DNA from: a virus
Virus record (IMG/VR): IMGVR_UViG_3300020166_000747
Length of the DNA stretch: 64,000 nucleotides
Strand: one strand, 5' to 3'
Shown piece after piece: positions 8,371 through 57,182 of this stretch (the first letter of the stretch is position 1; each line of letters starts with the position of its first letter). The translations under genes were made by a program, and so were the position numbers. The notes beneath the pieces were generated by a model. It was not told the origin of the DNA and ran no database searches. It was given only the letters and a program-made list of their open reading frames with translations.

Positions 8371-9426
8371 TTATTCTACTGTACTTAGGCCGTCTATAAC
8401 ATCTCCATCGATGACCATATCAACCGGATGTTTTTCTCCATAGAATTCATTTTGTTCCCAGCATTGGTCTTCTTCATTCCAATCAAACCAAGGGCTAACT
8501 GCTAATACATAGTTAGTCCTTTTATGCCCTGGCATCGGCTTTGCTACATATGGCCTGTGTGTTACATATGTATCCCATACATACCAATTTCCGGGAGTAA
8601 ACGATTTTGTTCCGTAATCTTCTATTTCGATACCATATGCATTCTCTGGATTATCAAGTGCTAGGTTTATACGAAGTTCGTAAAACCAGCTTTCATCTCT
8701 ATGCCATAAGTATTTGTTTGCATTCTCTTGCGTTGCTTTATCGTCAATGCCTTTAATTTGAGCAATACGACTACGCACGGGAGAAGACTTAATCCTATCT
8801 CTGAGAGTGCCCAGATATCCATGCCCAGAACATTCACTCCAATTCCTAAACCCCCATGTGTCTGGGTACGTATCTTTGTTGATACGTTCGCCTACATCTT
8901 TTCTATCTTCATACGTATCTAAAAGTTCACTTAGCATCTTATCATCAATTATACCATGTTGATGTAAGTACTTAAAGCCGTGATGCATACCAAACTCTTG
9001 AGTTTCGCTCCACAGGTCTTTATCTAAACGTTTTTCCATGATTTTTTCAAATAGTGAAAAGTTCTTCATAAACAGTTCGTCTGGGATATTATTTCTAGGA
9101 TATCCTAATGTCTGTGCGTTCGATGGAATGTTGCCATATCTATATGTAGGATTAGTTACTAAACTTAATCCGCCATAATTAGAACTTCTAGCAAACTTTC
9201 CTTGATATATATTTAAAAACCCATACCAACCATACTTAACGAATGCATCTTCAATGCTATCTTTTAGTGCATCTATGTCTAACTGTGAATCTTTAAATTC
9301 AAACAGAACACCTTCTTTACTCGGTTTCATTGTTTTTGCATACTTGTCAGTGTCTAGTGTTTCTGCAATCCAAGCATGTACGGCTTTTCTGTCTGGGCAA
9401 TCTTTTATATAAAATCTTTTCTTCAT
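8371..9426 (-). CDS. Putative 2OG-Fe(II)/Asp-Asn beta-hydroxylase-like oxygenase
   Basis: RSRIA...WHRDE...RINLAL...WDTYVTHR: HxD...H facial triad in C-terminal cupin-like region. Confidence 0.55.
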   Translation of the reverse strand: MKKRFYIKDCPDRKAVHAWIAETLDTDKYAKTMKPSKEGVLFEFKDSQLDIDALKDSIEDAFVKYGWYGFLNIYQGKFARSSNYGGLSLVTNPTYRYGNIPSNAQTLGYPRNNIPDELFMKNFSLFEKIMEKRLDKDLWSETQEFGMHHGFKYLHQHGIIDDKMLSELLDTYEDRKDVGERINKDTYPDTWGFRNWSECSGHGYLGTLRDRIKSSPVRSRIAQIKGIDDKATQENANKYLWHRDESWFYELRINLALDNPENAYGIEIEDYGTKSFTPGNWYVWDTYVTHRPYVAKPMPGHKRTNYVLAVSPWFDWNEEDQCWEQNEFYGEKHPVDMVIDGDVIDGLSTVE

Positions 9427-10598
9427 TTCTTATAACTCACATCACCTGGGTAGATCGGAACCATTGCACCAGGCGCGCGTTTTGGGATCTTACTATCTGC
9501 ACTAGATACGCAACTATCTGAAATACATACCTTAGGTGCATCGAACAGTTTAAACCCGCTTTCAATATACCCTAGAGGCTCGTCGGAGCAACTGTAAGAG
9601 CGTTTAATAGACCCATCAGGTTCACGTATGATAATACCCTTAAACCCACTTGTGCAATCCCAGCCTTTAAACTTATTAAAGTTAAACGCATTGAAACGTT
9701 CTGCTTGGTCCATATAGTACTTGTCGCCCTTACTATCTTCAAACTCAACTTGCATGATAGGTGGGACGTTCTTATCATCACCGTTTAACATATCCATCTT
9801 ATACATAGAACCTGTACGAGGTTTTGGACGCTTTGCTTTGATATCATTTGCTTTCGCAATAGTATCAGTATACGCACGTTGCGGCATACCGTTCTGCATC
9901 ATCTTTAATTGTTCATCAGTATAACCATCTACAACACGTGACGCTGTAGGATCGGACTGAGGTTTTAGTGTAACATTGATGCCACGCTTATGAAAGTACA
10001 TTGCATTGTCCCAATCTCTTTCGAACCACTCGGGGACTAGAACCATGTTAATTGTCACTTGCACATCGTGTTCCATACAGAACAACAGCTTATCAGCAAA
10101 TTCTTCCTGCTTTGCATATTCACTGTGGAATGATGCAGTAATACTAGCACGATGAAACTTTGCAACAATATCACAATATGTCTGAAACCAATCCATCTTA
10201 CGTGCCATATTTGTTGTCATATGAACAGAGGTATAATTAGTGTTATCGACATCATCAGCCAAATGCTGCAAAATATCCAGGTATCCTGGATGAAAAGTAG
10301 GCTCACCGCCTGACAGACTAAAATGAAAGCTATTAAAACTGTTATCACGTGCTTGCCTCTTTATTTCATCTATTGTTGCTAAACATAACTCTGTGGGCCT
10401 GTGGTCTTTTCTATCGCTCCTAGCATAAGGCCAGCAGTACGAACACTTGTAATTACAGAAACGTCCTAATAACCAAGATACTGAAAATAAGTCTCTGTAT
10501 AAAAGTGTTCGCTGCCCGACTTTTACAATATCATCGTATGGAGTTGCAGTAAAGTCATATTGTGACCAATAGTCTGCGTCTTTCTTAATCTCTGTCAT
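9423..10598 (-). CDS. Radical SAM protein with C-terminal Cys cluster
   Basis: CNYKCSYC, LSGGEPT, TTN; WDCTSG...C...C...C at C terminus. Confidence 0.92.
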   Translation of the reverse strand: MTEIKKDADYWSQYDFTATPYDDIVKVGQRTLLYRDLFSVSWLLGRFCNYKCSYCWPYARSDRKDHRPTELCLATIDEIKRQARDNSFNSFHFSLSGGEPTFHPGYLDILQHLADDVDNTNYTSVHMTTNMARKMDWFQTYCDIVAKFHRASITASFHSEYAKQEEFADKLLFCMEHDVQVTINMVLVPEWFERDWDNAMYFHKRGINVTLKPQSDPTASRVVDGYTDEQLKMMQNGMPQRAYTDTIAKANDIKAKRPKPRTGSMYKMDMLNGDDKNVPPIMQVEFEDSKGDKYYMDQAERFNAFNFNKFKGWDCTSGFKGIIIREPDGSIKRSYSCSDEPLGYIESGFKLFDAPKVCISDSCVSSADSKIPKRAPGAMVPIYPGDVSYKK

Positions 10599-10600: not shown

Positions 10601-12028
10601 TTATACCTTATACTTCTTCATTGCTGTATATAGTTCTGGCAGTTGCCGTTCCATATCTTCATCTCTGATATTATCTAACTTACCATTGTAGTCCCAAAAC
10701 TTCTTATTATTTTCTTCTGTAAACCAATCTTCTCCATACATAAAATTAATGTTAGTATCTAGAAGTTGGTTCATCTTTTCAATTGCCCATTCTCTATTAG
10801 CTGGCTTAATCATTCCCATCATAGCAGGATTCTTTTTTGCTGGACTATGAAAGTCAATAGTATCTACGATACTATCTTTGAATTCTGTTCTGAACGCTTC
10901 CCAACTATCACGTACTTGATCTTTGACATCTTTTGGTAAGAAGCGTGTACTCAATTCGTGTGGTCTATGTATAGGATGTACGTTAGCATAAGGTTTAGGA
11001 TTGTTTTTTAGCATAGGAGATATAACAGCAAAGTCCTGTTGTATCTTCCATTTTAAAAACTCAGGTAAATGAAATGCATTCAATGAGCCGATAGTAAAAG
11101 CGATCCATGCTCTAAACTTCATTGTTTCTGTGCCAACTTCATCTAGCTTCTTTAGATTTTTTTCTATTAGTTTCGACTTTAGCGGATTACGTACATACTC
11201 TAGTGTATCACCTATGCCGTCCATTGAGATACCAAACTGCACTTGCTTAAATTCTGACCACAGTTCTAATGCACGTGGCTGAATATTAGTAAGGTTTGTA
11301 TTGTATTCTAGTGTAATATCCTTAGAATATCCTTTTTCTACACAATGATTAAGGAATTCATAATGACGTTCAATAATTAGTGGCTCTCCACCAACTAGAT
11401 ATACATGTTGCATACCAGCGACATTGTTTTCTAAATTTTCCCAGAAATGGTCACGATGTACCCAATCATAGTCATCAGCAACGAACTTGCCCTTTTCATT
11501 CTTATACATTTCTACGATGCCATGGGTGTCTTTGAATCTGTTTGTCCCCCACATCTTCACGTAATCATCATACCATGCACTTGAATCCATTGGAGAACAC
11601 ATACGACACTTTAGATTACAAAAGTTACCTAAACGAATATCGTAATAAGTTTGTTTGATGTGGTCTAAGTCAATTTTGCCGTGTTCATCTGTATGCTTAA
11701 CTGCATCTTCCCAAGTAATATGTTTAGCAAATCTTTCACCATCATTAATGCGGCGCGATTTCATACCTGCTTTTTCTTCACGTACACAACGTACACATTC
11801 AGGATGCCATTCCCCATCTAACATAGTCTTGCGAATTTCTTTGGCAAGGGGTGAGTTAATAGCATCAGTGATATTATCACGATGCAAGTTATAATTTTTA
11901 CCGTCTTCCTTCTTATATATTCCTCGTGTTGGTCCCTGATTAGCATGACAACAAACTCTCAAGTCACCGTTTGCACGTGTTGAAATATTAATCCAAGGAA
12001 GAATACAGAATGTATCACTCTTTTGCAT
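10601..12028 (-). CDS. N-terminal twitch-domain radical SAM protein
   Basis: FCILPW..VCC..CVRC then CNLKCRMC, VGGEPL, YNTN. Confidence 0.93.
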   Translation of the reverse strand: MQKSDTFCILPWINISTRANGDLRVCCHANQGPTRGIYKKEDGKNYNLHRDNITDAINSPLAKEIRKTMLDGEWHPECVRCVREEKAGMKSRRINDGERFAKHITWEDAVKHTDEHGKIDLDHIKQTYYDIRLGNFCNLKCRMCSPMDSSAWYDDYVKMWGTNRFKDTHGIVEMYKNEKGKFVADDYDWVHRDHFWENLENNVAGMQHVYLVGGEPLIIERHYEFLNHCVEKGYSKDITLEYNTNLTNIQPRALELWSEFKQVQFGISMDGIGDTLEYVRNPLKSKLIEKNLKKLDEVGTETMKFRAWIAFTIGSLNAFHLPEFLKWKIQQDFAVISPMLKNNPKPYANVHPIHRPHELSTRFLPKDVKDQVRDSWEAFRTEFKDSIVDTIDFHSPAKKNPAMMGMIKPANREWAIEKMNQLLDTNINFMYGEDWFTEENNKKFWDYNGKLDNIRDEDMERQLPELYTAMKKYKV

Positions 12029-13241
12029 ATTCGTTCATCTCCGTATCTTCAAAGTTTTGCTCACCGTTGCCTCTGAAATCTAATTCTTTGCCACAAGTCT
12101 TACCGCATATCCAAAGACGTTCTTGTGAGTTAGTATTCCAGCTTGAAACTAAATCGTTTGAGAAGTATGGTGACTTTAAGATTTCAAAGATACTATGCTT
12201 TGATAGATTATTAAAGTCAGCTCCATACTTTTCCCACATATCTTTGTTATCTTCAATGCGTCTTGGCGTTGCCATGTCATGACCAATCTTACTGTAGTAA
12301 TGTCCCTGCCAACAGCACGGCCAAACTTTACCTTGATAGTCAACAAAGATACTTTTATCTCTTGCTGTTTGGCATTCTATCTCTGTTGTATTTACATAAT
12401 TATCAAAGCTCTTGTGTTTCTTGATAACTGCATCTACTTTCTCTGTAGTGTTAGCTTGCTTCTTTGGTGCAGCAAGAATAGTCTCTAATGCTTTTTCTTT
12501 TTGTTCTGTAGTCTTTTCTTGCTTTTTCTTTTGCGCTACATGTTGTTTAGCAACGAACTGAATCTCTGTACGCTTAACAATCTGCTCTTGTTCTTCGCCA
12601 TCATAATGTGTTGGGATTACATAACGATTTGATTTCTTATAGCGAAACTTGACAAAGCCCATGTCTTCTGCTAGTTGTCGTGCTTCTTCAATTTGATGTT
12701 CATTGTGCGCAAAACCAATGTAATCCCAACGTGCAATCCCGCCGGCGGCGATGAATGCTTTTGAATTGCGCATAATCGTTGACCATTTAGAGTTTACACG
12801 ATACAAGTGATTAGTATCTTCTAATCCATCAATAGCAAAGATTACCTTGTCTGGTTTTCGCATGATAGTAGCAAGCTCAGTCCACCATGCTTCTGTCTGT
12901 GCTGAACCATTTGTACTAAGTGTTACTTGTGGTACTCCCATATCTTTGCACATCTTAACTACTTCAAGTAGATAAGGATACATAATAGGATCACCATAGT
13001 TACCATTGATAAAGACATGATTGGGAAGAAACGGCTTAGTGTCTTCTAATATCTGTTGAATTAGTCTAGGATCAGTGTCAGTTAAGTCTAAGTCATCACG
13101 CTTTCGGAGATTTCCATCGTCCCCATCCATTCCGGTTGTTCTTCCGCACATAGGACATAGCAAATTGCATCTAGAAGTTAATTCTAAATGTAATACACCG
13201 ATGTTAAAGTCTATATACTTTAAGTTCTCTGATTTCGCCAT
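12015..13241 (-). CDS. Radical SAM/SPASM-twitch protein (GNYGD subtype)
   Basis: CNLLCPMC, NGNYGDP, STNG, FAIDG; C-terminal C..PCC..CGKTC. Confidence 0.92.
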   Translation of the reverse strand: MAKSENLKYIDFNIGVLHLELTSRCNLLCPMCGRTTGMDGDDGNLRKRDDLDLTDTDPRLIQQILEDTKPFLPNHVFINGNYGDPIMYPYLLEVVKMCKDMGVPQVTLSTNGSAQTEAWWTELATIMRKPDKVIFAIDGLEDTNHLYRVNSKWSTIMRNSKAFIAAGGIARWDYIGFAHNEHQIEEARQLAEDMGFVKFRYKKSNRYVIPTHYDGEEQEQIVKRTEIQFVAKQHVAQKKKQEKTTEQKEKALETILAAPKKQANTTEKVDAVIKKHKSFDNYVNTTEIECQTARDKSIFVDYQGKVWPCCWQGHYYSKIGHDMATPRRIEDNKDMWEKYGADFNNLSKHSIFEILKSPYFSNDLVSSWNTNSQERLWICGKTCGKELDFRGNGEQNFEDTEMNEYAKE

Positions 13242-14812
13242 CTCATAAACACTTTTTCTGGCATACTATTATATGCGTTATTTAATTCTGATACTTGCAT
13301 TCCTCGCGTAGGAGACCCGTCCCAATCTGCACTATGAACACGCATACGCGCATTAATCTCTGACAGGTCATTCATGAATTTAGAATAAACCTCTCTGCGT
13401 TCTTCATATGATAGAACCCAAGTTGTATAACGTGTAGTAATGTAGTTACTACTCCATAATACATCATCAAAGTTATCATCTGGTTCTTCGATTATATTCA
13501 ATAAAGAACTCCAATCTCTTATGAGATTAGACTGTGTATATGTAGTTTCATTATGTCTTACACGCTCAAAGAATTCGTACCATTCTTCCATGCTATCAAA
13601 AATACGTAGGATACTTGCTTCATATGCATCTTTCGCACGTTCTCTTTCACTTGCCCAATCTTCTGATTCATAGTCAAAGTCTTCGTAAATAGAGATTAGC
13701 CCTATATCTTTATTATAATAGTTTTCTTTCAAAAAGTCAAGATACATATTGAAGTTTCTTGGATCCCATTCTTCATTTACCCACTTACGTACATTAAGTG
13801 CATTCTGTGAGATATCAAAGTATTTAACCTTTACATCGTCAATACTTGTATCGGCATGCCAATTTCTCATGAATGCGAATGTTTTGAAACCTGCTGCAAC
13901 TGAATATAAATTTCGCAGTGGCTTCTTTGATGGTACAAATTTAATATCATCAATACTTTCAGTGTTTAGAATCCACATGGCATGCGGTGACCGTTCTACT
14001 GTAAACTGTTGGTAATCTAGGAAATCTTTCTTTGTGCCATCAAGTGGCGTGTCCCACTTCTTAAAGTTTGCACAATCTTCTCTAAAGAACTTTTTAAATT
14101 CTGCTTGTTCTTCTTTGATTTCTGGATACACATATGTTTTTGTTGCGCGTGCCGATTCATCAAAGTTAGGAACAGACAGTCCCATTTTTAAGCTCTCGTT
14201 AATGAAGTTCCACCCAAAGCCAGTACGTTTGATTTCTTCTTGTGCTGGGCCGGGAGCTAGATACTTAGGTGTATGACTATCATGAAAGTTTTCTGTACTA
14301 CGAATAGCTTGTCTTACTTCTGTCTTTTTAACACTGAAATCGCCAAACAACGGTTCTCCAAGTTCTTTCCATAGCTTATAATTAATAACAAAGCATTGCT
14401 CATGTAACCTAAACCAACGATCCTTATGTTGTTCATCAAGAATATGCCCCATTACTAGAAACTTATTCTGTTGCGCCATTGGTAGATATTCATGATTACA
14501 GTATTCTCTAAAAAGACTATAACCATGCTCAAGCGGTTTCCAAGCATCATATAAAAAATTACCATATGCTTGCACGACAACCATATCAATGTTTGATTCT
14601 TTTTCATCAGTCTTTACAGCTTGTAAAATTTTATCTACTGAATTTTCTTCATAGATTGGATGCTTAAAGAAACTGTAATTGTTTCTTAAAAAATTATAAG
14701 TAATCGCTCTCATATAATTACTGATTTCATCATCACCAATCGTTTTAGATGTGTCTAGTACTGCACATCTAATCTGTGGCATGAAGTTGTAAGAGCGTTG
14801 ATTTTTCTTCAT
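13220..14812 (-). CDS. Hypothetical two-domain protein (glycosyltransferase-like N terminus, Rossmann/methyltransferase-like C terminus)
   Basis: 530-aa ORF coupled to neighbours; GHILD..LHEQCFVIN and YSVAAGFK..YFDISQNAL motifs. Confidence 0.45.
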   Translation of the reverse strand: MKKNQRSYNFMPQIRCAVLDTSKTIGDDEISNYMRAITYNFLRNNYSFFKHPIYEENSVDKILQAVKTDEKESNIDMVVVQAYGNFLYDAWKPLEHGYSLFREYCNHEYLPMAQQNKFLVMGHILDEQHKDRWFRLHEQCFVINYKLWKELGEPLFGDFSVKKTEVRQAIRSTENFHDSHTPKYLAPGPAQEEIKRTGFGWNFINESLKMGLSVPNFDESARATKTYVYPEIKEEQAEFKKFFREDCANFKKWDTPLDGTKKDFLDYQQFTVERSPHAMWILNTESIDDIKFVPSKKPLRNLYSVAAGFKTFAFMRNWHADTSIDDVKVKYFDISQNALNVRKWVNEEWDPRNFNMYLDFLKENYYNKDIGLISIYEDFDYESEDWASERERAKDAYEASILRIFDSMEEWYEFFERVRHNETTYTQSNLIRDWSSLLNIIEEPDDNFDDVLWSSNYITTRYTTWVLSYEERREVYSKFMNDLSEINARMRVHSADWDGSPTRGMQVSELNNAYNSMPEKVFMRWRNQRT

Positions 14813-15609
14813 TGTGTCACTTTATTCCAACTGTTTAGTATTAAATCTTCAAATTCTTTTCCGCCATACTGTCCATGAACAATCATATGTACACGAACTT
14901 CATCTGTGTCATTCATCACAGCATGTTTGTGTCCTACATTCATCTTAAACATTTTGCCTGGCTTCCACGGAACATACGCATTGTCATCAATCATTTTAAA
15001 GTAACAATGCTCTGGGTTGTTCAACGATATATTTAGCGGTCCTAATTTGTCGTGTTCGTAATCAGTATGCGGAGTGATATAACCGCCTGGTTCTAGATAC
15101 ATGAAACGTACTCGATCAAACGCATTATATCCGGGGATAGATTTAATCATCTCTACTGTTGTTGGGCATTTATCTGCAATCTCTGTCCAGCCATATGCTT
15201 TACGTGCTTCATATTCGTTTTCATATGTAAACCCGGCTGCAATTACATCTTTACTATCCCAATGTTGTGATATGTGCTTGTGTAACCCATGTAGAGTCAG
15301 GGAGCGCCAACCACGATGCCCATAATCGTTTGGATCATTTTCATCATAGTCATTTGAACGATGCTGAATTGCCTCATCATAGACTTCCATCGCCTCATCA
15401 TAGCATTTCTTCCAATCAAACTCTGGGACATCTAATTCAAGCCAAGGTATACTAGACTCATGTGTTACCCACTTTGATTTTCTAAAACGTGCAGTTGGTG
15501 GGAACATAGGCTCATTCATCATAGCATCTACAAACGAACCTGGCATTGTATCAAAGCTATAACTATTTCTATCTTTGAAATGTTCTTCTATTGTTTTTGG
15601 ATAATCCAT
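14809..15609 (-). CDS. Aspartyl/asparaginyl beta-hydroxylase family 2OG-Fe(II) oxygenase
   Basis: GWRSLTLHG, RVRFMYLEPGGYITPHTD, HAVMN, RVHMIVHG; start reset to TAATG overlap at 15609. Confidence 0.85.
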   Translation of the reverse strand: MDYPKTIEEHFKDRNSYSFDTMPGSFVDAMMNEPMFPPTARFRKSKWVTHESSIPWLELDVPEFDWKKCYDEAMEVYDEAIQHRSNDYDENDPNDYGHRGWRSLTLHGLHKHISQHWDSKDVIAAGFTYENEYEARKAYGWTEIADKCPTTVEMIKSIPGYNAFDRVRFMYLEPGGYITPHTDYEHDKLGPLNISLNNPEHCYFKMIDDNAYVPWKPGKMFKMNVGHKHAVMNDTDEVRVHMIVHGQYGGKEFEDLILNSWNKVTQ

Positions 15610-16271
15610 TATTCTAATCTCCCAAATGCCCATTTACGTTCTTCGCACCACCAACATTCACCACAATGCCCAAGTCCGGGGTCTTCTATTTTTTCAAAAT
15701 AATCACTTGTAGGATCATATTCGCAACTACGTGTAATACTATATAAATCTTCTAGTAGATTTTCTTCATTATACATTTTTGCAATTGATCTTTTATCTAC
15801 GTTTGTCCATGGTGTATATGCAACGCCATTGACGATAAACGGCTTAATTACTCCAGGATTACGCTTTGTCTCTGTAATCTTTAATTTAAAATTATCTGAT
15901 ATATTAGTCGGCGGGTTCTCTGTTATGCCAGTGTATAGCATTTTTATAACGCCATTATCTATATAAGGTCTCAGCTTTGGAAATAGTGTCTCAGAACTCT
16001 GTACTTCACAGTATGAAATATGATGCTCTATATTACTGTTGCCTGTTAATTGAATACAACGTTCAACTACTTTAGTAGCGACCTCTACGTTATGTCTGCT
16101 ACGTTGATTATTACCAGTAGAGAATATATAAATCTTATCTTCGCAATGCTTCATTAGGTTATACAAAAGTATAGAGCTATCTGCTCCTCCGCTACAGCTT
16201 ACGCCTACCGGTCCTTCATATATATCTAAATTCACACCAGATACATCGATAGATTTAATTACTCTAGTCAA
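15609..16271 (-). CDS. QueC-like PP-loop ATPase
   Basis: SGGADS PP-loop; TRSC...HCGECWWCEER Zn site. Confidence 0.78.
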   Translation of the reverse strand: MTRVIKSIDVSGVNLDIYEGPVGVSCSGGADSSILLYNLMKHCEDKIYIFSTGNNQRSRHNVEVATKVVERCIQLTGNSNIEHHISYCEVQSSETLFPKLRPYIDNGVIKMLYTGITENPPTNISDNFKLKITETKRNPGVIKPFIVNGVAYTPWTNVDKRSIAKMYNEENLLEDLYSITRSCEYDPTSDYFEKIEDPGLGHCGECWWCEERKWAFGRLE

Positions 16272-17820: not shown

Positions 17821-17849
17821 GTTAACTCCAATTTTAATTATATACGTAT

Positions 17850-18911
17850 TTATTCAACTCTATACTTAGTTGCCTCAACATCAGCAATACAGCTACACCA
17901 ATCGTATTCACAGATTCTACCAGTTACTGGAAATTCTATGTTATCTGGATCGTTCATCATTCCGTGTTTCAAATCCGAAAAACAACTGCTACCAGAAGTT
18001 ACAACGCCGCGTTCATCAACTTTTAATGTTTCAACCCCTATATTACACATCCAGCCTTTCCAACTATTTCTGCCCGCGGCCATTGTATCATTTGATTGAG
18101 TGAACTCTATTTTTCCAGTATACGTATTAACAAATCGCATTAGTTTTCCATATGCTACCCGGCTTTGTTTTCTTTTATTCAACTCATGTTCAAAATTATC
18201 ACTATTTTTTAAATCGACATTAAAAAATTTAGGCTCACCTGCATATTTCTTAATTTCTTCTAAAAAGTCTGCACTATAATCAAATGTTTTATCATCGACA
18301 ATCGTTACTTGTAAACTTTTTGGGATAATACTACTACATTTAGCGTTTTCATAATAATATTTTGCTGCTTCTAAGCAATGATCCTCCAATGGCGGATACA
18401 TACATACCTGTACGCTAGTGACTACTCCCGCATCGTATAATATATTAAGTACATCGGTACAGTGAACATAATCTGCATTTTCGGGATGCCAACTAATAAT
18501 AACTTCATCAAATAAGTTAGCATTGCGTTTCCACCAATTCAAAGTACGAGATCCATTGGTCAATACACGCACAACACAATCTGGATCATATTCTTTGACT
18601 TTATTGAAAAATTTAGAGAAGTCTTTCCAGACCGTAGGTTCACCACCTAGTAAGTTCCATACAATCTTTTGTTTTCCAATTGAACGGTAATGGTCAGTAG
18701 TGCGTTTCACAAAATTAAATGCTATATCAACCTCTGGCCAAGCAAAGGTACCACCATACGACATTGGATGACAATAAGTACACTTATAATTACACGTGTT
18801 ACCTAAGGTCCAATCCACTATTACATAATCGTTTCCCATAATAGATTCATATCTATTATATTCTGAATTTAATTGGTCATTAGATTTGCTGATAAACTTA
18901 ATCTCTTGCAT
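17850..18911 (-). CDS. Radical SAM protein with C-terminal Cys cluster (paralog of 9423-10598)
   Basis: WTLGNTCNYKCTYC, LGGEPT, LTNG, WKGWMCNIG..C..C..CSC; start reset to 18911. Confidence 0.92.
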   Translation of the reverse strand: MQEIKFISKSNDQLNSEYNRYESIMGNDYVIVDWTLGNTCNYKCTYCHPMSYGGTFAWPEVDIAFNFVKRTTDHYRSIGKQKIVWNLLGGEPTVWKDFSKFFNKVKEYDPDCVVRVLTNGSRTLNWWKRNANLFDEVIISWHPENADYVHCTDVLNILYDAGVVTSVQVCMYPPLEDHCLEAAKYYYENAKCSSIIPKSLQVTIVDDKTFDYSADFLEEIKKYAGEPKFFNVDLKNSDNFEHELNKRKQSRVAYGKLMRFVNTYTGKIEFTQSNDTMAAGRNSWKGWMCNIGVETLKVDERGVVTSGSSCFSDLKHGMMNDPDNIEFPVTGRICEYDWCSCIADVEATKYRVE

Positions 18912-31104: not shown

Positions 31105-31129
31105 GTTAAATCCTGCTATAATTTTATTT

Positions 31130-31137
31130 GATAAATA
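31130..31137 (+). promoter_or_regulatory. T4-like late promoter box (GATAAATA)
   Basis: 5 nt upstream of ATG 31143, no SD. Confidence 0.55.
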
Positions 31138-31142
31138 TATTT

Positions 31143-33708: not shown

Positions 33709-33709
33709 T

Positions 33710-34073: not shown

Positions 34074-34076
34074 TAC

Positions 34077-34113: not shown

Positions 34114-34133
34114 ATCAAGAGAGAGGAACTACT

Positions 34134-49004: not shown

Positions 49005-50228
49005 CTACGTGTGATACTTAGTCTTAACACTGTCCCACGTACTTTGCATTTCTGCATTAGTATCTTTTCCACAGAAAATTGAACAAGTGCGTAAGCGTTT
49101 ATTTCTTACATTGTTATCGTTAAAGTTTTCGACATATTTTTCTTGGAACATTGGACCATCAATTATATCTTTCAGTGTAACATGGCGAAGAGAAATTTTA
49201 TCTTTACCATAATCATTGATAAACGATTTTAATTGTGATGTTTCTTCATTATCATATGCATAATACTTGCTTGCAGTGAAGCAACAGGGCCATACTAATC
49301 CTTCACTACTGACAAAGAAACTATCGGATTTCAAAACTAGACAATCAATTTTTGTAGAACCTAAATCTTTTTCCCATTGGGTCAATGGTCTAGTGTTATC
49401 CATTTTAAATGGCTTCGGAATATACTTAGGCCTATGTTCCTCTAACTTAAAAGTTTTTAATGCGTGTTTCGATTCTACATCCTCGCCGTCAACCTTGTTA
49501 AACGTTGTCTTACTAATATAATCCTTGATGACATTATTTTGCCAGCGACCTTCCATTGGAGGTTCAAGTACATAATCTAACTGTCCAGTTTCATTAAACA
49601 CATGCATTGCCGGAGTAGCCACTCTATCCGTATCACTATTGACAAATCCGAGTGCCTTTTTATGAAAGAAGTGATCAAACCCCATTTCTTTAGCTAGTGC
49701 CTCTGCTTCAGTAACTTGATGTTGATTGTGCTTGAATACTAAATAATCCCAACGTGCAGTTCCGCCAGCCCCTATATAATTTTTGGCTGCGGACATAATC
49801 TTATGCCAGTGAGTCCCACGACGATAGATATGGTTCGTATCTTCTAACCCATCGATACTAAAAGTAACATGCCCGTTACTACCGACAAGCCTACCTAAAT
49901 CCTGCCAGAACTTTTCATTACGTCCACTTGCATTAGTATTCATAGTCACTTTGATGTTTGGATTCAATTCCTTTGTGTACTCTAGAATTGAAATCAATTC
50001 TGGGTTTGTCATCGCATCGCCATAATTACCACAGAAAGAAATAGAAAATAATCTAGAGATTAATTCAACTGGGAACCATTTTTTGTATTGTTCTAACGTA
50101 ACATACGTTTCTGTAAACATCGGATTCTTTATACCGCCGGATTGTCGTCTGTTACAAACCGGACATAATGCGTTACACAAGCTGCTCACTTCTAAGTCCA
50201 AATGTTGTAGTCTGTCATATGTATACAT
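49005..50228 (-). CDS. Radical SAM/SPASM-twitch protein (GNYGD subtype)
   Basis: CNALCPVC, FCGNYGDA, FSIDG, PCC, CSIFC. Confidence 0.92.
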   Translation of the reverse strand: MYTYDRLQHLDLEVSSLCNALCPVCNRRQSGGIKNPMFTETYVTLEQYKKWFPVELISRLFSISFCGNYGDAMTNPELISILEYTKELNPNIKVTMNTNASGRNEKFWQDLGRLVGSNGHVTFSIDGLEDTNHIYRRGTHWHKIMSAAKNYIGAGGTARWDYLVFKHNQHQVTEAEALAKEMGFDHFFHKKALGFVNSDTDRVATPAMHVFNETGQLDYVLEPPMEGRWQNNVIKDYISKTTFNKVDGEDVESKHALKTFKLEEHRPKYIPKPFKMDNTRPLTQWEKDLGSTKIDCLVLKSDSFFVSSEGLVWPCCFTASKYYAYDNEETSQLKSFINDYGKDKISLRHVTLKDIIDGPMFQEKYVENFNDNNVRNKRLRTCSIFCGKDTNAEMQSTWDSVKTKYHT

Positions 50229-50230
50229 AA

Positions 50231-51421
50231 TTAATGTATCCTCTTAAATTCTGGTAAATAATCGCCGATAACTTGGTTACGTATCGTATCTAAGTTACGA
50301 GTGTATTCTTTTGCTTGTTCCCATTTCTCTGGTTTATCAGGTCCACCGAACATGTTTTTAAATTCTTTTAATTTGTAATCTTCAAATACATTACTAAATC
50401 GTTCATGTATGCTATCACGCATAGCTTTAGGTAATGCTGCAGGGGATAGAATGTCTGGATCATACACATAGTTATGATGAACCCATACTCCATGTTCTCT
50501 ATGGAAGAAGTTATAAAAGTCTCCTAGAGTAGAGTAGTTCATCCATGATACAGTTTGCGTTACATCAATTTCAAAGTCTTCTTCCTTAATACGTAAGAAG
50601 TTCTTCATAACAGTGTCCCATTTAGTTGGGTATCGAATGTAATGATTTCTATCACCTAGGTCGTCGATGCTACAACTAATCTTCACATGATCGAACTTTC
50701 TCCATAACTCTATCACTTCTTCACTCATTAGCGTCATGTTGATATTGTACCACAGTTTGATATCTGTTTTACCCATATCAACTAAACGCTCTAAGAACTT
50801 AAAGTGTTCTTTGATTAGTGTTGGTTCTCCACCATTAATATAGAATGTCTTTACTCTGTCGCAATGCTGTAGTAAGTCATTCCAGAACTCTTCACGTTCA
50901 GGCCATCTAAAGCCTTCCATCGTGTCATAGCTTGTGAGTTTGAATGTTGTACTGCTTTGTAGTTTGTCGTAATCGTTACGCCATTTAGATGATGATGCTG
51001 GATTACAAGTACGACATGCAACATTGCAAACATTACCTAATCTAAGCTCAACGAAATCGAGTTGTACATCTTTCATGTAGCCAGTATCGTCAGTGGCGTC
51101 CCTAGCGACTCCTACAGTGTACTCAGGATAGTTCTTAATCTCTTCTAACCGTTTGCTTTGCATACCTTTTGCTTCTTCCGAGTAACAACGCATACATGCC
51201 TTAGGCTTCTTTCCATCAAGTACTTGTACTCTTGCTTTGCGGAATGACTCGCTATTCATCGTTTCGAATACGGTATCTCTGTTGAGATTATAATAACGTC
51301 GATCACCATCTTTCGCACTACTAAGTGCTTGTCTGTGATCCGCAATACAGCAATGCGTCACACCCCCATGAGGATGTGTCGCTAGGTGTTGAAATAGTAA
51401 TGGGCAGAATGTATCAGTCAT
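50231..51421 (-). CDS. N-terminal twitch-domain radical SAM protein
   Basis: FCPLLF..HCC..CMRC then CNVACRTC, NGGEPT. Confidence 0.92.
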   Translation of the reverse strand: MTDTFCPLLFQHLATHPHGGVTHCCIADHRQALSSAKDGDRRYYNLNRDTVFETMNSESFRKARVQVLDGKKPKACMRCYSEEAKGMQSKRLEEIKNYPEYTVGVARDATDDTGYMKDVQLDFVELRLGNVCNVACRTCNPASSSKWRNDYDKLQSSTTFKLTSYDTMEGFRWPEREEFWNDLLQHCDRVKTFYINGGEPTLIKEHFKFLERLVDMGKTDIKLWYNINMTLMSEEVIELWRKFDHVKISCSIDDLGDRNHYIRYPTKWDTVMKNFLRIKEEDFEIDVTQTVSWMNYSTLGDFYNFFHREHGVWVHHNYVYDPDILSPAALPKAMRDSIHERFSNVFEDYKLKEFKNMFGGPDKPEKWEQAKEYTRNLDTIRNQVIGDYLPEFKRIH

Positions 51422-52697
51422 TATCTATTTGCCCGTGTACATACGCAGATAACTCAGGGTATACCGCTCTCCAATCTAAGTTTCTACGTTGATCCATCTT
51501 GTCGGAGTATGAAACGAATTCTCGTAACATTTCTAAATCAGGTTCATTACTTTCGATTGCTTTATAATATCCCGTTAACATATCAAATTCTTTAGTATCG
51601 GGGTTAACCAAATCTATTAGTTTTTGCAAGTCCGGTAACACGTAACTTCCAAACTTAGTTGGATCTAAAAATGGTGGGTTTTGAATAATGTTCCAGCTTT
51701 GTTCAATCTCTTTATCGTAACGTAGTTGATAGTCCAATACTTTTTGTCGTAATTCCCAATTAGTAGGCGTGGTCAGCGGACAAATTGTACTATGTACTTG
51801 AACTGTAATGCCATCTAATTCCATTAGTGTATTGAAGTTCTCTTCCCATTGCTCCAAGTCTATCCCGTAACGTGAATATTCTTGTTCAGGTCCCCATGCA
51901 TCAATACTACATACAACAATCCAATTGTCAATTTTCCCAGTAGCGATCATTTTTTGAATCCTTGCAAGTTTCTGTTTGAACAGGCGAGGTTTATGCATCA
52001 AATTACTAAACATCTTTATACCGATATTAGAATTATCATTCTCCGATTCTTCAAAGAATGATAAACATTCCTCGAACTCTTCTTTCTGATACAGTGGTTC
52101 GCCACCTAAAATATGAAACATTTTAATTTTGTGTGAATGTTCGTGCATCCATTCCCAGAACTCACCCTTGCGCTTTTCGTATCTATTTGAACTTGAGAAA
52201 TTACCATCAAGACTATAGTACTTACTAGCAGGACCATACTTTTTAATCTCTGCTTCAATTTTACTACTAAATTGCGGTGTGCAATATGTACATGCTAGAT
52301 TACATGTATTCTTAAAGTATACCTCAACACAGGTAGGAGTCACTTCGTCTTGTAATTCGTTGTTTTCAGAATACATAATTTCATGCGGATTCCAATTATT
52401 CATCGGAGTGAAAACCTGTCTTTCACTCTTGCCGCCGGAATCTTCGACACGTTTGCAGTATTGGCAACTGTCCTTAGGCCACTTCCCATCAACCATGCGC
52501 TTGCGTTCTTCAACTAATTTCGGATGCTTGTTAAAATCTTTAAAATTATCGTCCGGCGATAGATTAAATCCGCCGGTTCGGTGACACATATTGATTTGGT
52601 CAAGACTTAGATATAATGTTAACCAACTCCATTTTAACGCACACGCTGCCTCATTCTGAATAGGGAACATTCTTCCTGATTTATTTTCTTCCATCAA
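51414..52697 (-). CDS. N-terminal twitch-domain radical SAM protein (CxxKW subtype)
   Basis: CALKW..MCHR..CQYC then CNLACTYC, LGGEPL. Confidence 0.92.
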   Translation of the reverse strand: MMEENKSGRMFPIQNEAACALKWSWLTLYLSLDQINMCHRTGGFNLSPDDNFKDFNKHPKLVEERKRMVDGKWPKDSCQYCKRVEDSGGKSERQVFTPMNNWNPHEIMYSENNELQDEVTPTCVEVYFKNTCNLACTYCTPQFSSKIEAEIKKYGPASKYYSLDGNFSSSNRYEKRKGEFWEWMHEHSHKIKMFHILGGEPLYQKEEFEECLSFFEESENDNSNIGIKMFSNLMHKPRLFKQKLARIQKMIATGKIDNWIVVCSIDAWGPEQEYSRYGIDLEQWEENFNTLMELDGITVQVHSTICPLTTPTNWELRQKVLDYQLRYDKEIEQSWNIIQNPPFLDPTKFGSYVLPDLQKLIDLVNPDTKEFDMLTGYYKAIESNEPDLEMLREFVSYSDKMDQRRNLDWRAVYPELSAYVHGQIDND

Positions 52698-54081
52698 ATC
52701 GTCTCCACCAAAGATACAGTTCTGTATCTAATTTGTAAATATCTTCTAGCCGATATTGTTCTTGTCTAATCTGGTCAAGTCTATCTTGATATCCTTTACC
52801 ATTCTTAAACTCTTGTTCGTGTGTATCTGGCCATTGTTCTGCAAATGTCGGACGTTTCTTCATTTCATGTAGAGTGTTAATAAGTGTCTCTTGCTTTTGT
52901 GTACCACGTGGTTCCATATATGCTAATAACTCATCAATTTTTCTGTCAAGAATATGACGTGGCCACGCAAACGGTGACATAACAATATCAGCATGAAATG
53001 CAAACATGATTTTTGTTTCCATGCGCACATCTAATTCTAGTGATAAGTCAAACAAATCTTTTAATGAGAACATGCCTGGACCTGTGATAGTCAAGTCAAA
53101 TAGCATTTTATGCTTACCACCAGGTGCTGCCAGTCCTTGCTTGAAGTTATCTAGCCATTCTTCCCATACGATACCCTTACGAATAAACTCTACAATATCA
53201 CCAGTACCATCGATAGATGCGCACATTAACCAGTCTTTAAACTGTGGTAGATAATCAAATAGATTTTTACCTTTGAAGTCTACACGTGATAGATTAGAAT
53301 TATAACGCAAATAACAGTTCTTTGCAGAACCGTTGTTTACCATTTCTTCTAATGCCCACCAATGCATATCATACATAAGAGGTTCGCCGCCGACCCAATA
53401 GATTTCTTCTACTATGCCGTCACTAATTGCTTTCTTGAACTCAGGTTCAGCAACGTCTTTCTGAAACTTTTGCATTTTCTGTTTAACAGTAGGTTGCATA
53501 AAGGGCTGATTTTCAATACTCCACATGTCGTGTTTCTTCTTTTCAGCTTCCCATGCACTTGATAATTGCTCACCGCACATACGACACTTGAAGTTGCACA
53601 AGTTTGAATAACGATAGTCAAAGGAAATTACTGGCATTTCTGTACGCCCATCATCATCTGTCTTATCAAATGCTTCTTGTATCTTATCTTTGAATAGTAC
53701 ACCTGTGAACCATTTGCGATACGAACTTAGTGATAGAGTGTCATCATTACACACATCACATTGTGGAATGCGCTCTCCTGCCATTAGCTTCTTACGAATG
53801 TCACGCATGTAAGGAGAGTTCCAATGTTCTTCTAGCGTTGTTGGATTAAAGTCATCAACGTCAGTTTTAGAATCTGTTACTTCCCCATACTTTGAATCAT
53901 TTGATGCATCGATATACTGCTTTTGAAAAGAGTGTTCTTCACGTGATGCACAACACATTCTACGTTCACCTTGTGGCGAGATATAAGTATGTGACCACGG
54001 TGCCATACAGAAAGTTTTGTTTTCACTTTCTTCAGCACAACTTGCATCATCTTTCCAGATTGGTACGATTCGTTTAGTCAA
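52681..54081 (-). CDS. N-terminal twitch-domain radical SAM protein
   Basis: FCMAPW..MCC..CDVC then CNFKCRMC, VGGEPL. Confidence 0.92.
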   Translation of the reverse strand: MTKRIVPIWKDDASCAEESENKTFCMAPWSHTYISPQGERRMCCASREEHSFQKQYIDASNDSKYGEVTDSKTDVDDFNPTTLEEHWNSPYMRDIRKKLMAGERIPQCDVCNDDTLSLSSYRKWFTGVLFKDKIQEAFDKTDDDGRTEMPVISFDYRYSNLCNFKCRMCGEQLSSAWEAEKKKHDMWSIENQPFMQPTVKQKMQKFQKDVAEPEFKKAISDGIVEEIYWVGGEPLMYDMHWWALEEMVNNGSAKNCYLRYNSNLSRVDFKGKNLFDYLPQFKDWLMCASIDGTGDIVEFIRKGIVWEEWLDNFKQGLAAPGGKHKMLFDLTITGPGMFSLKDLFDLSLELDVRMETKIMFAFHADIVMSPFAWPRHILDRKIDELLAYMEPRGTQKQETLINTLHEMKKRPTFAEQWPDTHEQEFKNGKGYQDRLDQIRQEQYRLEDIYKLDTELYLWWRRFDGRK

Positions 54082-55624
54082 CTATAATTCCTCCGAGGGC
54101 ATCAGTCTCCGTATCCCACCCACCTACTTTTATTTTCTGTTCGTGTGCGTCATCTCCGCTACCATACTCTTCAGTCGTAGCAGGATCAAGCCCACGTGGT
54201 GCATTTTCAAGAATAAATGTCTTAGACTTTATTTGTTCAGCGGTGGGGACTTCTGCCTCAAGTGTGTTATACCAATCAGCCATCGGACCTTTAAAGGTTT
54301 CAGCGAAACTCTTATTACGTCTTACATCAAACTGTGAAAAGAATGCCTTAAAGTCGTTGTACAATTTACCTTGATCTGCTGTGTTCTTATGTGGTGTTTT
54401 AACAATATCAAGATAGTCGATCAGTCTGCGTACACTTGCGCGTTCATGTTCGAATATTTTTTTACTATTAAGAAAAAGCCATGAAGTCAATTTGTCTTTG
54501 TAGTATTTTTTAAGATGTTCTGGTAAAATCGCGGCACTCTGAAAACTTGGGAATCGTAGAATGTTCAATGTAAGCGAAGGAGCACGTGGTCCGTATTCTT
54601 CACGTAGTTCAACTATTTCATCCATAAATTCAGTGATGCTATTTAAGCACAACGAATTGATTGTCATCATCATATGTAGTTTCTGTACATTAGATTCTTT
54701 AAGAACACGATGGATACTATTCATCCATTTGTCATAATCCAAACCGTCACGTATATACTCAGCTTGATCTTTTGTTGCTTCCATAGAAGTGTAGATTTCA
54801 AAGTTAGGAACATACCAAGACTTTTCAATCAACTTGTCTAGTACTTTAGGAGTTTCTGGTGACAAGTTACTATTAATAGCAAATCGCATATTACGACCAC
54901 GATCTGGGTTCTTTTCAAACCAATCAAACAACTTCCAAGTACCCGTATGCATGATGGGTTCGCCACCAGTAATACGAATTTCTTCTAGACTGTCTGCTAA
55001 ATCACTTTCCCACCATGTATGAAACGCTTGAATGAATGGATTGTCTTCTGCTTTCTTTGTTGTAGGTTCTGCCCACGGAGCAGTGTCCATAAAGTGGCCG
55101 CGCCCATCAGACTGAATATTTTGATATGCGCCATAATCATTGATGTCTTTAACCCATGCAGTTGAGAATGCTGGATTACAGTAAGTACACTTTAGATTAC
55201 ATGCTCTATCAAATGAGATTTCAAGTGTACGCAACGGTACATTGGAATCCCATGGCATTTCCATACTCTTGTCAAGGTCTTCATTGCTGAAGATTTCAGT
55301 TTTGAATACGCGGTCAGAGATATGGTCTTTGCCCATATCTTCTACTTTCCAACAGTATTCGCATTCACTAGGACGTTCGCCCTCTTGCATCATCTTACGC
55401 ATCTTCTTCTTATGCATAGTATTATGAATTGCAGAAGGATTGTCTTTTAGTTCTTCGACTGGAATCCAGTGTCCAGGTGGGTGATGACAACTTGTAGTTT
55501 GCCCATGACCCAACCAAATAGTTGCATTATACCATTTTGCACCACAATAGCTTGCGCTCTTGGTATCAATTATACGTTCTTTATACTGATGAAGGGTTTC
55601 CCCATTCTTGTTGTCACGCGCCAT
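54074..55624 (-). CDS. N-terminal twitch-domain radical SAM protein (CxxKW subtype)
   Basis: CGAKW..SCHH..CEYC then CNLKCTYC, TGGEPI. Confidence 0.92.
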   Translation of the reverse strand: MARDNKNGETLHQYKERIIDTKSASYCGAKWYNATIWLGHGQTTSCHHPPGHWIPVEELKDNPSAIHNTMHKKKMRKMMQEGERPSECEYCWKVEDMGKDHISDRVFKTEIFSNEDLDKSMEMPWDSNVPLRTLEISFDRACNLKCTYCNPAFSTAWVKDINDYGAYQNIQSDGRGHFMDTAPWAEPTTKKAEDNPFIQAFHTWWESDLADSLEEIRITGGEPIMHTGTWKLFDWFEKNPDRGRNMRFAINSNLSPETPKVLDKLIEKSWYVPNFEIYTSMEATKDQAEYIRDGLDYDKWMNSIHRVLKESNVQKLHMMMTINSLCLNSITEFMDEIVELREEYGPRAPSLTLNILRFPSFQSAAILPEHLKKYYKDKLTSWLFLNSKKIFEHERASVRRLIDYLDIVKTPHKNTADQGKLYNDFKAFFSQFDVRRNKSFAETFKGPMADWYNTLEAEVPTAEQIKSKTFILENAPRGLDPATTEEYGSGDDAHEQKIKVGGWDTETDALGGIIVD

Positions 55625-57182
55625 ATTTTACCTCGTATTCTTCTTTAGCTTCATTCCAAAAGTCTGTCATTTCAGGGAATGTTTCTAAGAAATTTAGTCC
55701 CCTACGCTTATCATACTGTGTAAAGTATTCGTAGAAACGAATTAACTTATCACTTAATTCTGCGTCACTCATATTTAGTCCTTCTTTTGCCCAAGCCAAA
55801 TCACGCTCAAGTTTTAAGACTTCATAGTTCTTAAATCCAGTATACTTACGTCCATACAAATCATTTGGTAGAACATTTGCTTTCATGTAATCGATATTGC
55901 TTTGAATAGTATCAAGCATGATTGGATCTGCTAGTTGAATTGTCATCCAGTCTGGATAACGTAAGTAAGGAATATCAAACCAAACACGTTGACGTTTCTT
56001 GCGCACAAATTTTGGATGCTTAAATCCATTTCGGTCGGGAGGCTGAATAACTTTGTCTTCTTGATTTTCATACCCAAATTCTTCGCGCAACTTTAGAATC
56101 ATATCTAAGAACCCACGTAAATTTGGTATACTAAGGAGAGTAAAAGTGTTAATAAACGAAATCTCTGTACCATCTGTTTCAGACAATACTCGACGGCAAT
56201 TTTCATACATCGTATCAAAATCAAGGCCATCACGAAGATATTCAGCCTGCTTCCCGACACTATCAACACTAACATATAAACTAAAATGCTTACATGCTGG
56301 TGCGACATACCAATGATTTCCGCTATCTGGGTTGAAACGTTCTGGATCTTCCCAAACGCGGACTTCTTCTAATTTCTGTATTTTCTCAATGAACTTATCC
56401 ATTAACGCTGGTTGAGGAGGCGCCATGTTTGACGTAATACTCAAGTCTAAGAATGCGTTTGGATTTTCATTGACATAATCTAATACTTTGAATGTATTCT
56501 TATCCATAAGAGGTTCACCACCTGTCATTCGGAATACTTTCAATTCGTTGTACACTTCTGGAAACCATTTCCAAAATGCTTCAATATAAGGATTATCTTT
56601 ACGTGCTACTTCAAGTGGCATCATACCAGTCTTACGTAGATAATCAATATCATTATGCCCAGTACCGTTAGCAAATCTAAAGCCACCATGTTTCTTAACA
56701 TCATCTTCCCATGCAGTAGATAGATGCGGAGAACAATAAGAACACTTTAGATTACATGCTTGATTGAAATTTACTTCAACGTATCGCGGTGTTATCTTGT
56801 GATCCCAAGGATTGTTTACTACTTCGTCCCATGCTTCTTTGACCCACCACTCACTACTGCGATAGTGTCTATCACTTAGACGACCACCTTCCGGGGCATT
56901 CGGTGCATCTTCTACATTCCAACAATACTGACAACCTTCAGGACGTTCACCCTGCAACATTTGCTTACGCTCTTGCATCTTAAATGTTGTATTGTGTAAT
57001 GCACCTACATCTTTTTTCAGTTCATCTAACGGAATAGCATGTGTAGGTGGATGATAACAACTATGTGTACGGCCTTGCGGCAGATGCAAACTTACTTGCA
57101 ACCACTTTGCCATACACATAGATGGTGAAATAGAATTTAGCTTTTGACGTGTGCTTACTGCATCGTCATCATAATTTGACAT
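55614..57182 (-). CDS. N-terminal twitch-domain radical SAM protein (CxxKW subtype)
   Basis: CMAKW..SCYH..CQYC then CNLKCSYC, TGGEPL. Confidence 0.92.
   Translation of the reverse strand: MSNYDDDAVSTRQKLNSISPSMCMAKWLQVSLHLPQGRTHSCYHPPTHAIPLDELKKDVGALHNTTFKMQERKQMLQGERPEGCQYCWNVEDAPNAPEGGRLSDRHYRSSEWWVKEAWDEVVNNPWDHKITPRYVEVNFNQACNLKCSYCSPHLSTAWEDDVKKHGGFRFANGTGHNDIDYLRKTGMMPLEVARKDNPYIEAFWKWFPEVYNELKVFRMTGGEPLMDKNTFKVLDYVNENPNAFLDLSITSNMAPPQPALMDKFIEKIQKLEEVRVWEDPERFNPDSGNHWYVAPACKHFSLYVSVDSVGKQAEYLRDGLDFDTMYENCRRVLSETDGTEISFINTFTLLSIPNLRGFLDMILKLREEFGYENQEDKVIQPPDRNGFKHPKFVRKKRQRVWFDIPYLRYPDWMTIQLADPIMLDTIQSNIDYMKANVLPNDLYGRKYTGFKNYEVLKLERDLAWAKEGLNMSDAELSDKLIRFYEYFTQYDKRRGLNFLETFPEMTDFWNEAKEEYEVKYGA

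Follow-up and report, generated by a model that had tools for sequence, protein, structure and literature searches.

Two arrays of radical SAM genes with conserved cores in a viral genome, kept with a glycosyltransferase-like partner and possibly tailoring a glycan

A 64-kb stretch of viral DNA from the IMG/VR record IMGVR_UViG_3300020166_000747 (hereafter the window, the whole 64,000 nucleotides analysed) encodes 14 radical S-adenosylmethionine (SAM) enzymes, 13 of which lie clustered in two arrays. Our analysis established that these genes are real, to which families they belong, that they are conserved and under purifying selection, and that they co-occur in fixed sets and are fused in other genomes. 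On balance, the 13 clustered genes probably encode the tailoring enzymes of two phage-borne modules that build glycans. The enzymes most likely edit an unusual sugar chain, because they are found in the near-constant company of, and sometimes fused to, a protein resembling sugar transferases; their substrate is accordingly taken to be, most likely, a glycan or a nucleoside diphosphate (NDP) sugar.

Fourteen intact radical SAM genes in two arrays

Genes are named by the start coordinate of their open reading frame (ORF) in the window, for example 16264. The window is densely coding, with a GC content of 37%. A first-pass annotation, made from the sequence before this work, had claimed fourteen radical SAM genes; all of them are present and intact at the coordinates it gave, except that the gene of type e spans 31128-32063, and each of the 14 proteins contains exactly one CxxxCxxC motif. 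Twelve pass the gathering score of PF04055 (29.5 bits), and the other two fall below it by little (18911 at 26.1 bits, 55614 at 25.3 bits); 12015 and 49005 share 31-35% identity with 18911. This abundance is not due to chance: 14 genes fall within 64 kb, and matches above the cut-off of NF033640 (N_Twi_rSAM, an NCBIfam model with a curated cut-off of 170 bits), the family to which eight of them belong, occurred in 0 of 14 control model genomes.

Array 2 and the gene beside it, referred to as X, comprise:

49005-50228 (-): radical SAM enzyme of type c with GNYGD and a putative C-terminal twitch domain, a variable member (PF04055 30.1 bits, PF13186 20.1 bits)
50231-51421 (-): N-twitch radical SAM enzyme of type a, fourth member of core B (NF033640 354.5 bits; dN/dS 0.083)
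51414-52697 (-): N-twitch radical SAM enzyme of type b, a variable insertion (NF033640 220.6 bits)
52681-54081 (-): N-twitch radical SAM enzyme of type a, anchor of core B (NF033640 331.8 bits; dN/dS 0.072)
54074-55624 (-): N-twitch radical SAM enzyme of type b, core B (NF033640 304.7 bits; dN/dS 0.083)
55614-57182 (-): N-twitch radical SAM enzyme of type b, core B (NF033640 305.1 bits; dN/dS 0.049)
57183-58160 (-): X, 325 amino acids (aa), predicted divergent GT-A-like protein (nucleotide-diphospho-sugar transferase fold), near-constant partner of both cores

where dN/dS is the ratio of nonsynonymous to synonymous substitution rates. The six genes at 49005-57182 are tandem, as first described, and overlapping. 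Array 1 and its neighbours comprise:

9423-10598 (-): radical SAM enzyme of type d with a C-terminal four-Cys motif, third member of core A (PF04055 47.5 bits; dN/dS 0.033)
10601-12028 (-): N-twitch radical SAM enzyme of type a (NF033640 363.6 bits; dN/dS 0.059 from a single pair)
12015-13241 (-): radical SAM enzyme of type c with GNYGD and a C-terminal twitch/SPASM-like domain (PF04055 32.9 bits, PF13186 23.9 bits at residues 290-379; dN/dS 0.072)
14809-15633 (-): Asp/Asn beta-hydroxylase-type Fe(II)/2-oxoglutarate (2OG) oxygenase, a tailoring gene within the array (PF05118 63.2 bits)
15609-16271 (-): QueC-like PP-loop ATP pyrophosphatase (PF06508 33.8 bits)
16264-17820 (-): N-twitch radical SAM enzyme of type a, anchor of core A (NF033640 425.7 bits; dN/dS 0.062)
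17850-18953 (-): radical SAM enzyme of type d, a variable accessory copy (PF04055 41.1 bits)
18911-19999 (-): radical SAM enzyme of type c with GNFGD and a C-terminal CC...CxxxC motif, partner of 16264 in core A (dN/dS 0.058)
19983-21197 (-): N-twitch radical SAM enzyme of type a, a variable copy (NF033640 292.1 bits)
21198-23536 (-): Y1 (468 aa) and Y2 (310 aa), paralogous proteins with no assigned family
23529-28049 (-): protein of 1506 aa with at least four tandem X-like (GT-A-like) repeats and a weaker fifth
28088-29620 (-): NodU/CmcH-type carbamoyltransferase (PF16861 183.9 bits, PF02543 142.7 bits)

The subfamilies proposed at first reading stood with one correction. Type a (10601, 16264, 19983, 50231 and 52681) carries C...CC...CxxC before the SAM motif, while the narrower signature FCxxP(W/F) does not extend to 50231, which reads FCPLLF. 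Type b (51414, 54074 and 55614) has CxxKW plus a single Cys followed by His or Tyr, in place of CC. The four-Cys twitch is present in all eight of these genes, as had been claimed for their N-terminal auxiliary domain. Type c (12015, 18911 and 49005) has GN(Y/F)GD in place of the GGE-type SAM-binding motif that is invariant in the N-twitch set, together with a C-terminal CC...CxxxC motif, and type d (9423 and 17850) has WxLG..CNYKC. Since type d also has a C-terminal Cys motif, 13 of the 14 enzymes possess an auxiliary Cys motif, 31128 being the sole exception.

Two cores conserved across viruses and bacteria

Core A consists of 18911 and 16264, with 9423 as a third member, and was found in 76 viral (IMG/VR) loci, with up to 12 radical SAM genes per cluster (counting loci longer than 15 kb). 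The 18911 type precedes the 16264 type in nearly all of these loci and lies directly upstream in most, and a 9423-type gene is often present. Orthologs of 18911 at 45% identity or more occur in 65/76 viral loci; the homologs of 16264 number more than 3,000, with 63-94% identity in the best 120. The same trio is found in a 2.9-Mb bacterial contig and in metagenome-assembled genomes of Bacteriovoracaceae/Halobacteriovoraceae, surrounded by genes for glycosyltransferases of the GT2 and GT-C (PMT_2) types and for an FAD oxidase, and a short Bdellovibrionales contig holds a 16264-type gene by itself. In the bacterial loci, orthologs of 9423 (59-62% identity) adjoin the 16264 type (L001, L002, L008, L009 and L011), and orthologs of 18911 (47-48% identity) lie directly upstream of it (L002, L008 and L009); bacterial relatives of 10601 are 36-42% identical. 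Homologs of Y1 and Y2 accompany core A in 57/76 and 40/76 viral loci, respectively, and in bacterial L002, L008 and L009. Their sole family match is a weak one to TenA/PQQC (21.2 bits, under the cut-off).

Core B consists of 55614, 54074 and 52681, usually joined by 50231, and was found in 79 viral loci, most of which keep this order. The 52681 type is present at 45% identity or more in 79/79 loci and has at least 7,995 homologs, on contigs of up to 355 kb; relatives of 50231 (36-86% identity) occur in most core-B loci. Variable accessory radical SAM genes surround both cores. In array 2 the variable members are 49005, matched in only 28/79 core-B loci, and 51414, which has no ortholog in the nearest relative, L088; in array 1, 17850 is only 43-68% identical even in the nearest phages.

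NF033640 matches over the cut-off number 11 and 13 in two phages that are complete and bear terminal repeats (342,607 and 328,149 bp), and 8 and 10 in two bacterial genomes. No near-identical DNA was found among deposited phages, in which the 16264 protein had a sole match, 23% identical, in Ralstonia phage RsoM2USA. Zaragoza-Solas et al. (2020, PMC7029224) mention radical SAM cassettes in the pelagimyophage host recognition cluster. In that account of the pelagimyophage/cyanomyophage cluster the cassettes appear without family assignment, core structure, partner protein or function, and the complete relatives found here differ from those phages in being ~330-340 kb long.

Within array 1, the oxygenase at 14809 is kept in the close relatives L004 and L005, and the QueC-like gene is found in the bacterial loci L002 and L003. 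The closest phages depart from the window in entire genes: they have an extra radical SAM gene, an aminotransferase and a second hydroxylase and are without the QueC-like gene (L004:5356-6630 and 17794-19406 (+)).

Paralogs diversified under purifying selection

The radical SAM paralogs of the window share 20-36% identity and fall into separate deep clades of the tree, with type b forming its own. Against close relatives, dN/dS was 0.03-0.08 for the nine genes with close orthologs; 17850, 19983, 31128, 49005 and 51414 had no ortholog with unsaturated dS. On the families of cofactor biosynthesis (MoaA, NirJ, PqqE, QueE, AhbC/D and MftC), the best scores were 18-50 bits against equivalog cut-offs of 206-650, and no gene reached any of them. 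Because of these low dN/dS values, the divergence of the paralogs and the absence of any match at a cofactor-family cut-off, the genes are neither degenerating copies, for which dN/dS would lie near 1, nor members of known cofactor-biosynthesis families, the two outcomes that would have spoken against the first-pass annotation. The paralogs are intact, diversified and under strong purifying selection (in the nine genes measured) rather than decaying duplicates.

A GT-A-like partner and natural fusions

Homologs of X were found in 64/76 core-A loci, 71/79 core-B loci and 3/5 bacterial loci. Its AlphaFold2 (AF2) model (mean predicted local distance difference test score, pLDDT, 90.2) has a GT-A-like fold in the N-terminal part. 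Most Foldseek matches were GT-A glycosyltransferases, with some sugar nucleotidyltransferases, and VIA gave Z ~10 over residues 1-155 (to 6p61, Z 10.1, root-mean-square deviation (rmsd) 3.2, 138 residues aligned). D63 and D65 of the DxD motif are invariant. X thus combines a predicted Rossmann-like nucleotide-sugar-binding fold with a DxD metal site, as expected of GT-A proteins, in a fold class that also includes sugar nucleotidyltransferases. Neither X nor the 1506-aa protein matched a curated glycosyltransferase family in Pfam, NCBIfam or PHROG at E 0.01 or better. PHROGs returned nothing but one family of unknown function for X, Y1, Y2 and neighbouring unknown genes, and the ESM Atlas offered automatic names only, 'Glycosyltransferase 2-like' for X and a weak methyltransferase lead for Y2.

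The 1506-aa protein at 23529-28049, which has no Pfam or NCBIfam family, matches X or fused X domains at E 1e-8 or better in four repeats (residues ~146-261, 731-833, 1162-1255 and 1280-1501), and a fifth (472-543) matches at E 0.007. In other genomes X is fused to a 16264-type enzyme in proteins of 713-722 aa (P0065, P0070, P0076 and P0094). Many proteins of the wider family join two or three N-twitch modules in tandem, one of them adjoining a GT2 gene; P0174 (950 aa) joins a 55614-like to a 54074-like module in the same order as in the window. A fusion of an N-twitch enzyme to an FkbM methyltransferase also exists. Of the available evidence, these fusions argue best for joint action of the enzymes with one another and with X, and they support the earlier suggestion of possible hetero-oligomers, which natural two- and three-module proteins fit. 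The earlier link to sugars likewise fits the constant presence of X and its fusion to the 16264 type.

On a bacterial contig (L167:1153-4005 (+)), P0174 stands by itself beside a DNA_alkylation-family gene, PadR and ClpXP; no transferase lies close to it. The ~240-aa N-terminal extension of 52681-type fusions (P0439 and others) was considered as an X-like domain and rejected (hhalign probability 0.1%); it matches no Pfam family.

A close precedent for virus-encoded transferases of this fold is the capsid glycosyltransferase A64R of PBCV-1, whose GT-A domain is matched by X (Foldseek 2p6w, E 1.7e-3, probability 0.99). PBCV-1 and the present virus each encode their own transferases, predicted ones in the present case, whereas radical SAM genes here outnumber transferases. 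To our knowledge, no radical SAM enzymes take part in the chlorovirus glycosylation system.

The N-twitch family and its relatives

The eight type a and b proteins match NF033640 over the whole length of the model at 221-426 bits, and the six remaining radical SAM proteins, at 34-54 bits or with no score, are not members. In an alignment of 86 N-twitch sequences (16264 numbering), C28, C109, C112, the three Cys of the SAM cluster, GGE, N272, S295 and R307 are invariant, and C46, C47, D463 and R466 are conserved in at least 90%. CxxxCxxC lies at 165-172, C-terminal to the four-Cys twitch motif, and the D463/R466 pair bears out the DxxR helix said to end types a and b. Pfam SPASM matches were obtained at residues 6-113 of 10601, 16264, 50231 and 52681. 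Among 1.84 billion cluster representatives, a profile of the 86 sequences matched 8,374 with an E value of 1e-30 or lower.

The N-terminal position of the twitch had been presented as unusual. This did not hold: going by its sequence model, the layout is not new, the family being catalogued as NF033640, which is already NCBI's name for a Bacteriovoracaceae ortholog. NF033640 is a sequence model only, and its definition does not include the 8-13-copy arrays of phages, the two conserved cores or the GT-A-like partner. Literature searches on NF033640, the N-terminal twitch and multi-radical-SAM phage clusters found nothing specific and no characterised member.

In type c, at least 96% of 86 sequences keep the C-terminal residues C258, C277, C278, C346 and C350 (18911 numbering); on PF13186 (cut-off 21.5 bits) 12015 scores 23.9, 49005 scores 20.1 and 18911 has no match. 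The N-terminal domain of type a and the C-terminal one of type c can be aligned, CC on CC (hhalign probability 75%, E 2.5e-5), which suggests that they may be the same module in two positions. In type d, C315, C337, C358 and C363 of 9423 are invariant among relatives, as are C303, C348 and C353 of 17850, with C324 at 61%. Neither protein reaches the cut-off of the viperin family NF038283 (180 bits): 9423 scores 43.5 and 17850 scores 39.1 bits, over the N-terminal half of the core only.

PDB sequence searches with 16264, 9423, 18911 and X found no real relative. The AF2 model of 16264 (pLDDT 88.5; predicted template modelling score, pTM, 0.87) has a radical SAM core whose structural neighbours, anSME, CteB, BlsE, viperin, SuiB, SkfB and DesII, are tied at Z 11-12.4. 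Because all are tied, these matches give no pointer to function. The proposal of oxidases, epimerases or deoxygenases was mere analogy to BtrN, anSME and DesII, and among the tied neighbours no sugar enzyme is singled out. The twitch/SPASM dehydrogenases BtrN and anSME likewise combine a radical SAM core with a Cys-rich auxiliary [4Fe-4S] domain, and anSME is among the top matches of 16264 (Z 12.4, rmsd 4.0, 225 residues aligned); the C-x17-C...CxxC spacing of the N-twitch also resembles that of BtrN. They differ in the place of the auxiliary domain, which is N-terminal in eight genes of the window; moreover, 16264 is only 8-18% identical in sequence to matched structures such as anSME, and BtrN is absent from the match lists.

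A glycan as the probable substrate, weighed against alternatives

The window contains sugar-nucleotide genes, for a UDP-glucose dehydrogenase and a cytidylyltransferase-cupin protein, as well as the carbamoyltransferase. Together with the hydroxylases, the PP-loop enzyme and the GT-A-like partner, they point to an unusual sugar chain that would be built and radically edited. In module 1, the core of 18911, 16264 and 9423 would work with the multi-repeat 1506-aa transferase-like protein; in module 2, the core of 55614, 54074, 52681 and 50231 would work with X at 57183. The GT-A-like domains would bind or transfer nucleotide-activated sugars. In each radical SAM enzyme, a 5'-deoxyadenosyl radical would take a hydrogen from an unactivated sugar carbon, and the single auxiliary [4Fe-4S] cluster of the twitch would handle the electron, leading to oxidation, epimerisation, dehydration or changes of C-C bonds. 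Further decoration may come from the carbamoyltransferase, the Fe(II)/2OG-type hydroxylases, the PP-loop amidotransferase-like enzyme and the sugar-nucleotide genes, and the variable accessory genes around the fixed cores would make the product differ between phage lineages. The class of substrate, the types of reaction and the location of the product, on the virion or the host surface, are what we infer from the data.

Several observations weigh against a glycan. No gene for glycan export or for a polymerase was identified in the window. The fold match of X is modest (Z ~10, Foldseek E ~1e-3) and common to the nucleotidyltransferases MobA and IspD; since sugar nucleotidyltransferases share this fold, X may not transfer sugars. 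One fused 55614/54074-type protein stands alone beside ClpXP, with no transferase within ~5 kb. The structural neighbours of 16264 are mainly SPASM enzymes that modify peptides or proteins (anSME, CteB, SuiB and SkfB). Finally, the proposed chemistry rests on analogy, because NF033640 has no member of known reaction.

The enzymes could instead modify a peptide or protein, in RiPP-like (ribosomally synthesized and post-translationally modified peptide) or virion-protein maturation, with the GT-A-like domains then glycosylating the product. In mycofactocin synthesis, the glycosyltransferase MftF acts after the radical SAM enzyme MftC; one pathway there unites, as proposed here, a GT-A-type transferase and a radical SAM enzyme that bears an auxiliary-cluster domain. 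The anSME, CteB, SuiB and SkfB neighbours of 16264 would suit a peptide substrate, as would the resemblance of X to the peptide S-glycosyltransferases SunS and ThuS and the TPR linkers in some fused NF033640 members. There is also a candidate peptide:

29628-29741 (-): 37-aa ORF filling the gap between a DUF6071 gene and the carbamoyltransferase gene

In 37 related viral loci its C-terminus, LEELRKRDPFIY(K/R), hardly varies; as a short peptide ending in Tyr-Lys or Tyr-Arg and encoded nearby, it adds to the likeness to mycofactocin. However, this ORF is tied to the carbamoyltransferase, which it adjoins in 34/37 loci, and not to the radical SAM genes, and it was not found in the five core-A bacterial loci. 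The arrays are packed too tightly for further precursor genes, and Pfam detected no RiPP recognition element (RRE) or leader-binding domain. Unlike the mycofactocin enzymes, the genes of the window score 19-28 bits against a mycofactocin radical SAM cut-off of 265, and no homologs of MftB, MftD or MftE were seen. A peptide or protein substrate appears unlikely to us.

We consider it quite unlikely that the arrays make a soluble small molecule instead of a polymer-bound glycan. Such a molecule would be a natural product, a cofactor or a modified nucleotide, perhaps an aminoglycoside- or nucleoside-like compound with a use in infection. Twitch radical SAM enzymes of known function, such as BtrN, do act on small cyclitols, and NodU/TobZ-type carbamoyltransferases also occur in antibiotic pathways. 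BlsE and viperin, with nucleotide-type substrates, are among the tied neighbours of 16264; type d has the CNYKC motif in common with viperin and MoaA, to which it is weakly similar (39-44 bits); and beta-ketoacyl synthase (KAS), desaturase-like and halogenase genes lie at 3-2962. Yet at least four tandem transferase-like repeats in one protein fit the stepwise assembly of an oligomer better, GT2 and GT-C genes surround the bacterial clusters, and the window showed neither a transporter nor a resistance gene. Hypermodification of phage DNA bases, in which a group put on DNA by X-like domains would be reworked by the radical SAM enzymes, is highly improbable. Both activities have precedents, in the glycosylation of phage DNA and in the radical SAM enzymes of thymidine hypermodification; genes for dihydrofolate reductase (DHFR) and thymidylate synthase abut array 1, as they do in L004 and L005, and one fused radical SAM pair adjoins a DNA_alkylation-family gene. 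Bacterial chromosomes, however, hold core A amid GT2 and GT-C genes, no family of hydroxymethylases, DNA kinases or DNA transferases was detected, and ThyA scores 343 bits on PF00303 and is read as an ordinary thymidylate synthase.

A bolder form of the glycan-tailoring interpretation is that N_Twi_rSAM proteins are obligate hetero-oligomeric machines with GT-A-like subunits that perform an as yet unknown class of radical editing directly on growing glycans, and that accessory modules swapped around fixed cores amount to a combinatorial code of surface sugars in marine jumbo phages and Bdellovibrio-type predators. We regard this as doubtful.

Other features of the window

One radical SAM gene lies outside both arrays:

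31128-32063 (+): stand-alone radical SAM enzyme of type e, without an auxiliary Cys motif (PF04055 54.4 bits)

Its best NCBIfam match is TrsS (83 bits against a cut-off of 490), and it has 443 homologs on contigs of up to 343 kb. It had been counted into the proposed assembly line; it is a real radical SAM gene, but it belongs to a separate family and stands apart from the arrays.

At one end of the window lies a group of phage-borne genes of lipid or natural-product type (3-2962 (+)), made up of a fragment of a tryptophan halogenase, a gene for a beta-ketoacyl synthase and one like fatty-acid desaturases; it is followed at 3497-5390 (+) by a DUF2201 metallopeptidase/VWA-like gene overlapping an HNH endonuclease ORF. 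A 783-base segment (33352-34133) contains no ORF longer than 100 aa, only ORFs of 86-96 aa, and has no Rfam match; neither Rfam families nor tRNAs were found in the window as a whole. Between the two arrays, a 570-aa protein (37939-39651 (+)) combines a peptidoglycan-binding domain with FG-GAP repeats. Directly upstream of the gene starting at 43331, TATAAATA occurs three times, overlapping at a 6-base spacing (43335-43354 (-)); as an enriched late-promoter motif of the window it was rejected, with 7 occurrences seen against 8.5 expected. The gene for a short RuBisCO-like protein (45051-46097 (-); PF00016, 91.5 bits) shares its minus-strand operon with genes of HAD hydrolase and nucleotidyltransferase-like type.

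Implications

Among the hardest reactions of biology are some catalysed by radical SAM enzymes, and the NF033640 family, of which public data contain at least 8,374 clusters at 50% identity, has not one known reaction. The genetic investment is unusual: strong purifying selection maintains 11-13 copies in complete phages of ~330-340 kb. The system is now testable, with small groups of genes for co-expression marked out by the fixed cores and the natural fusions. If the substrate is indeed a glycan, radical editing of sugars would extend beyond antibiotic pathways, and phages and predatory bacteria would have a new means of varying the sugars of their surfaces or virions.

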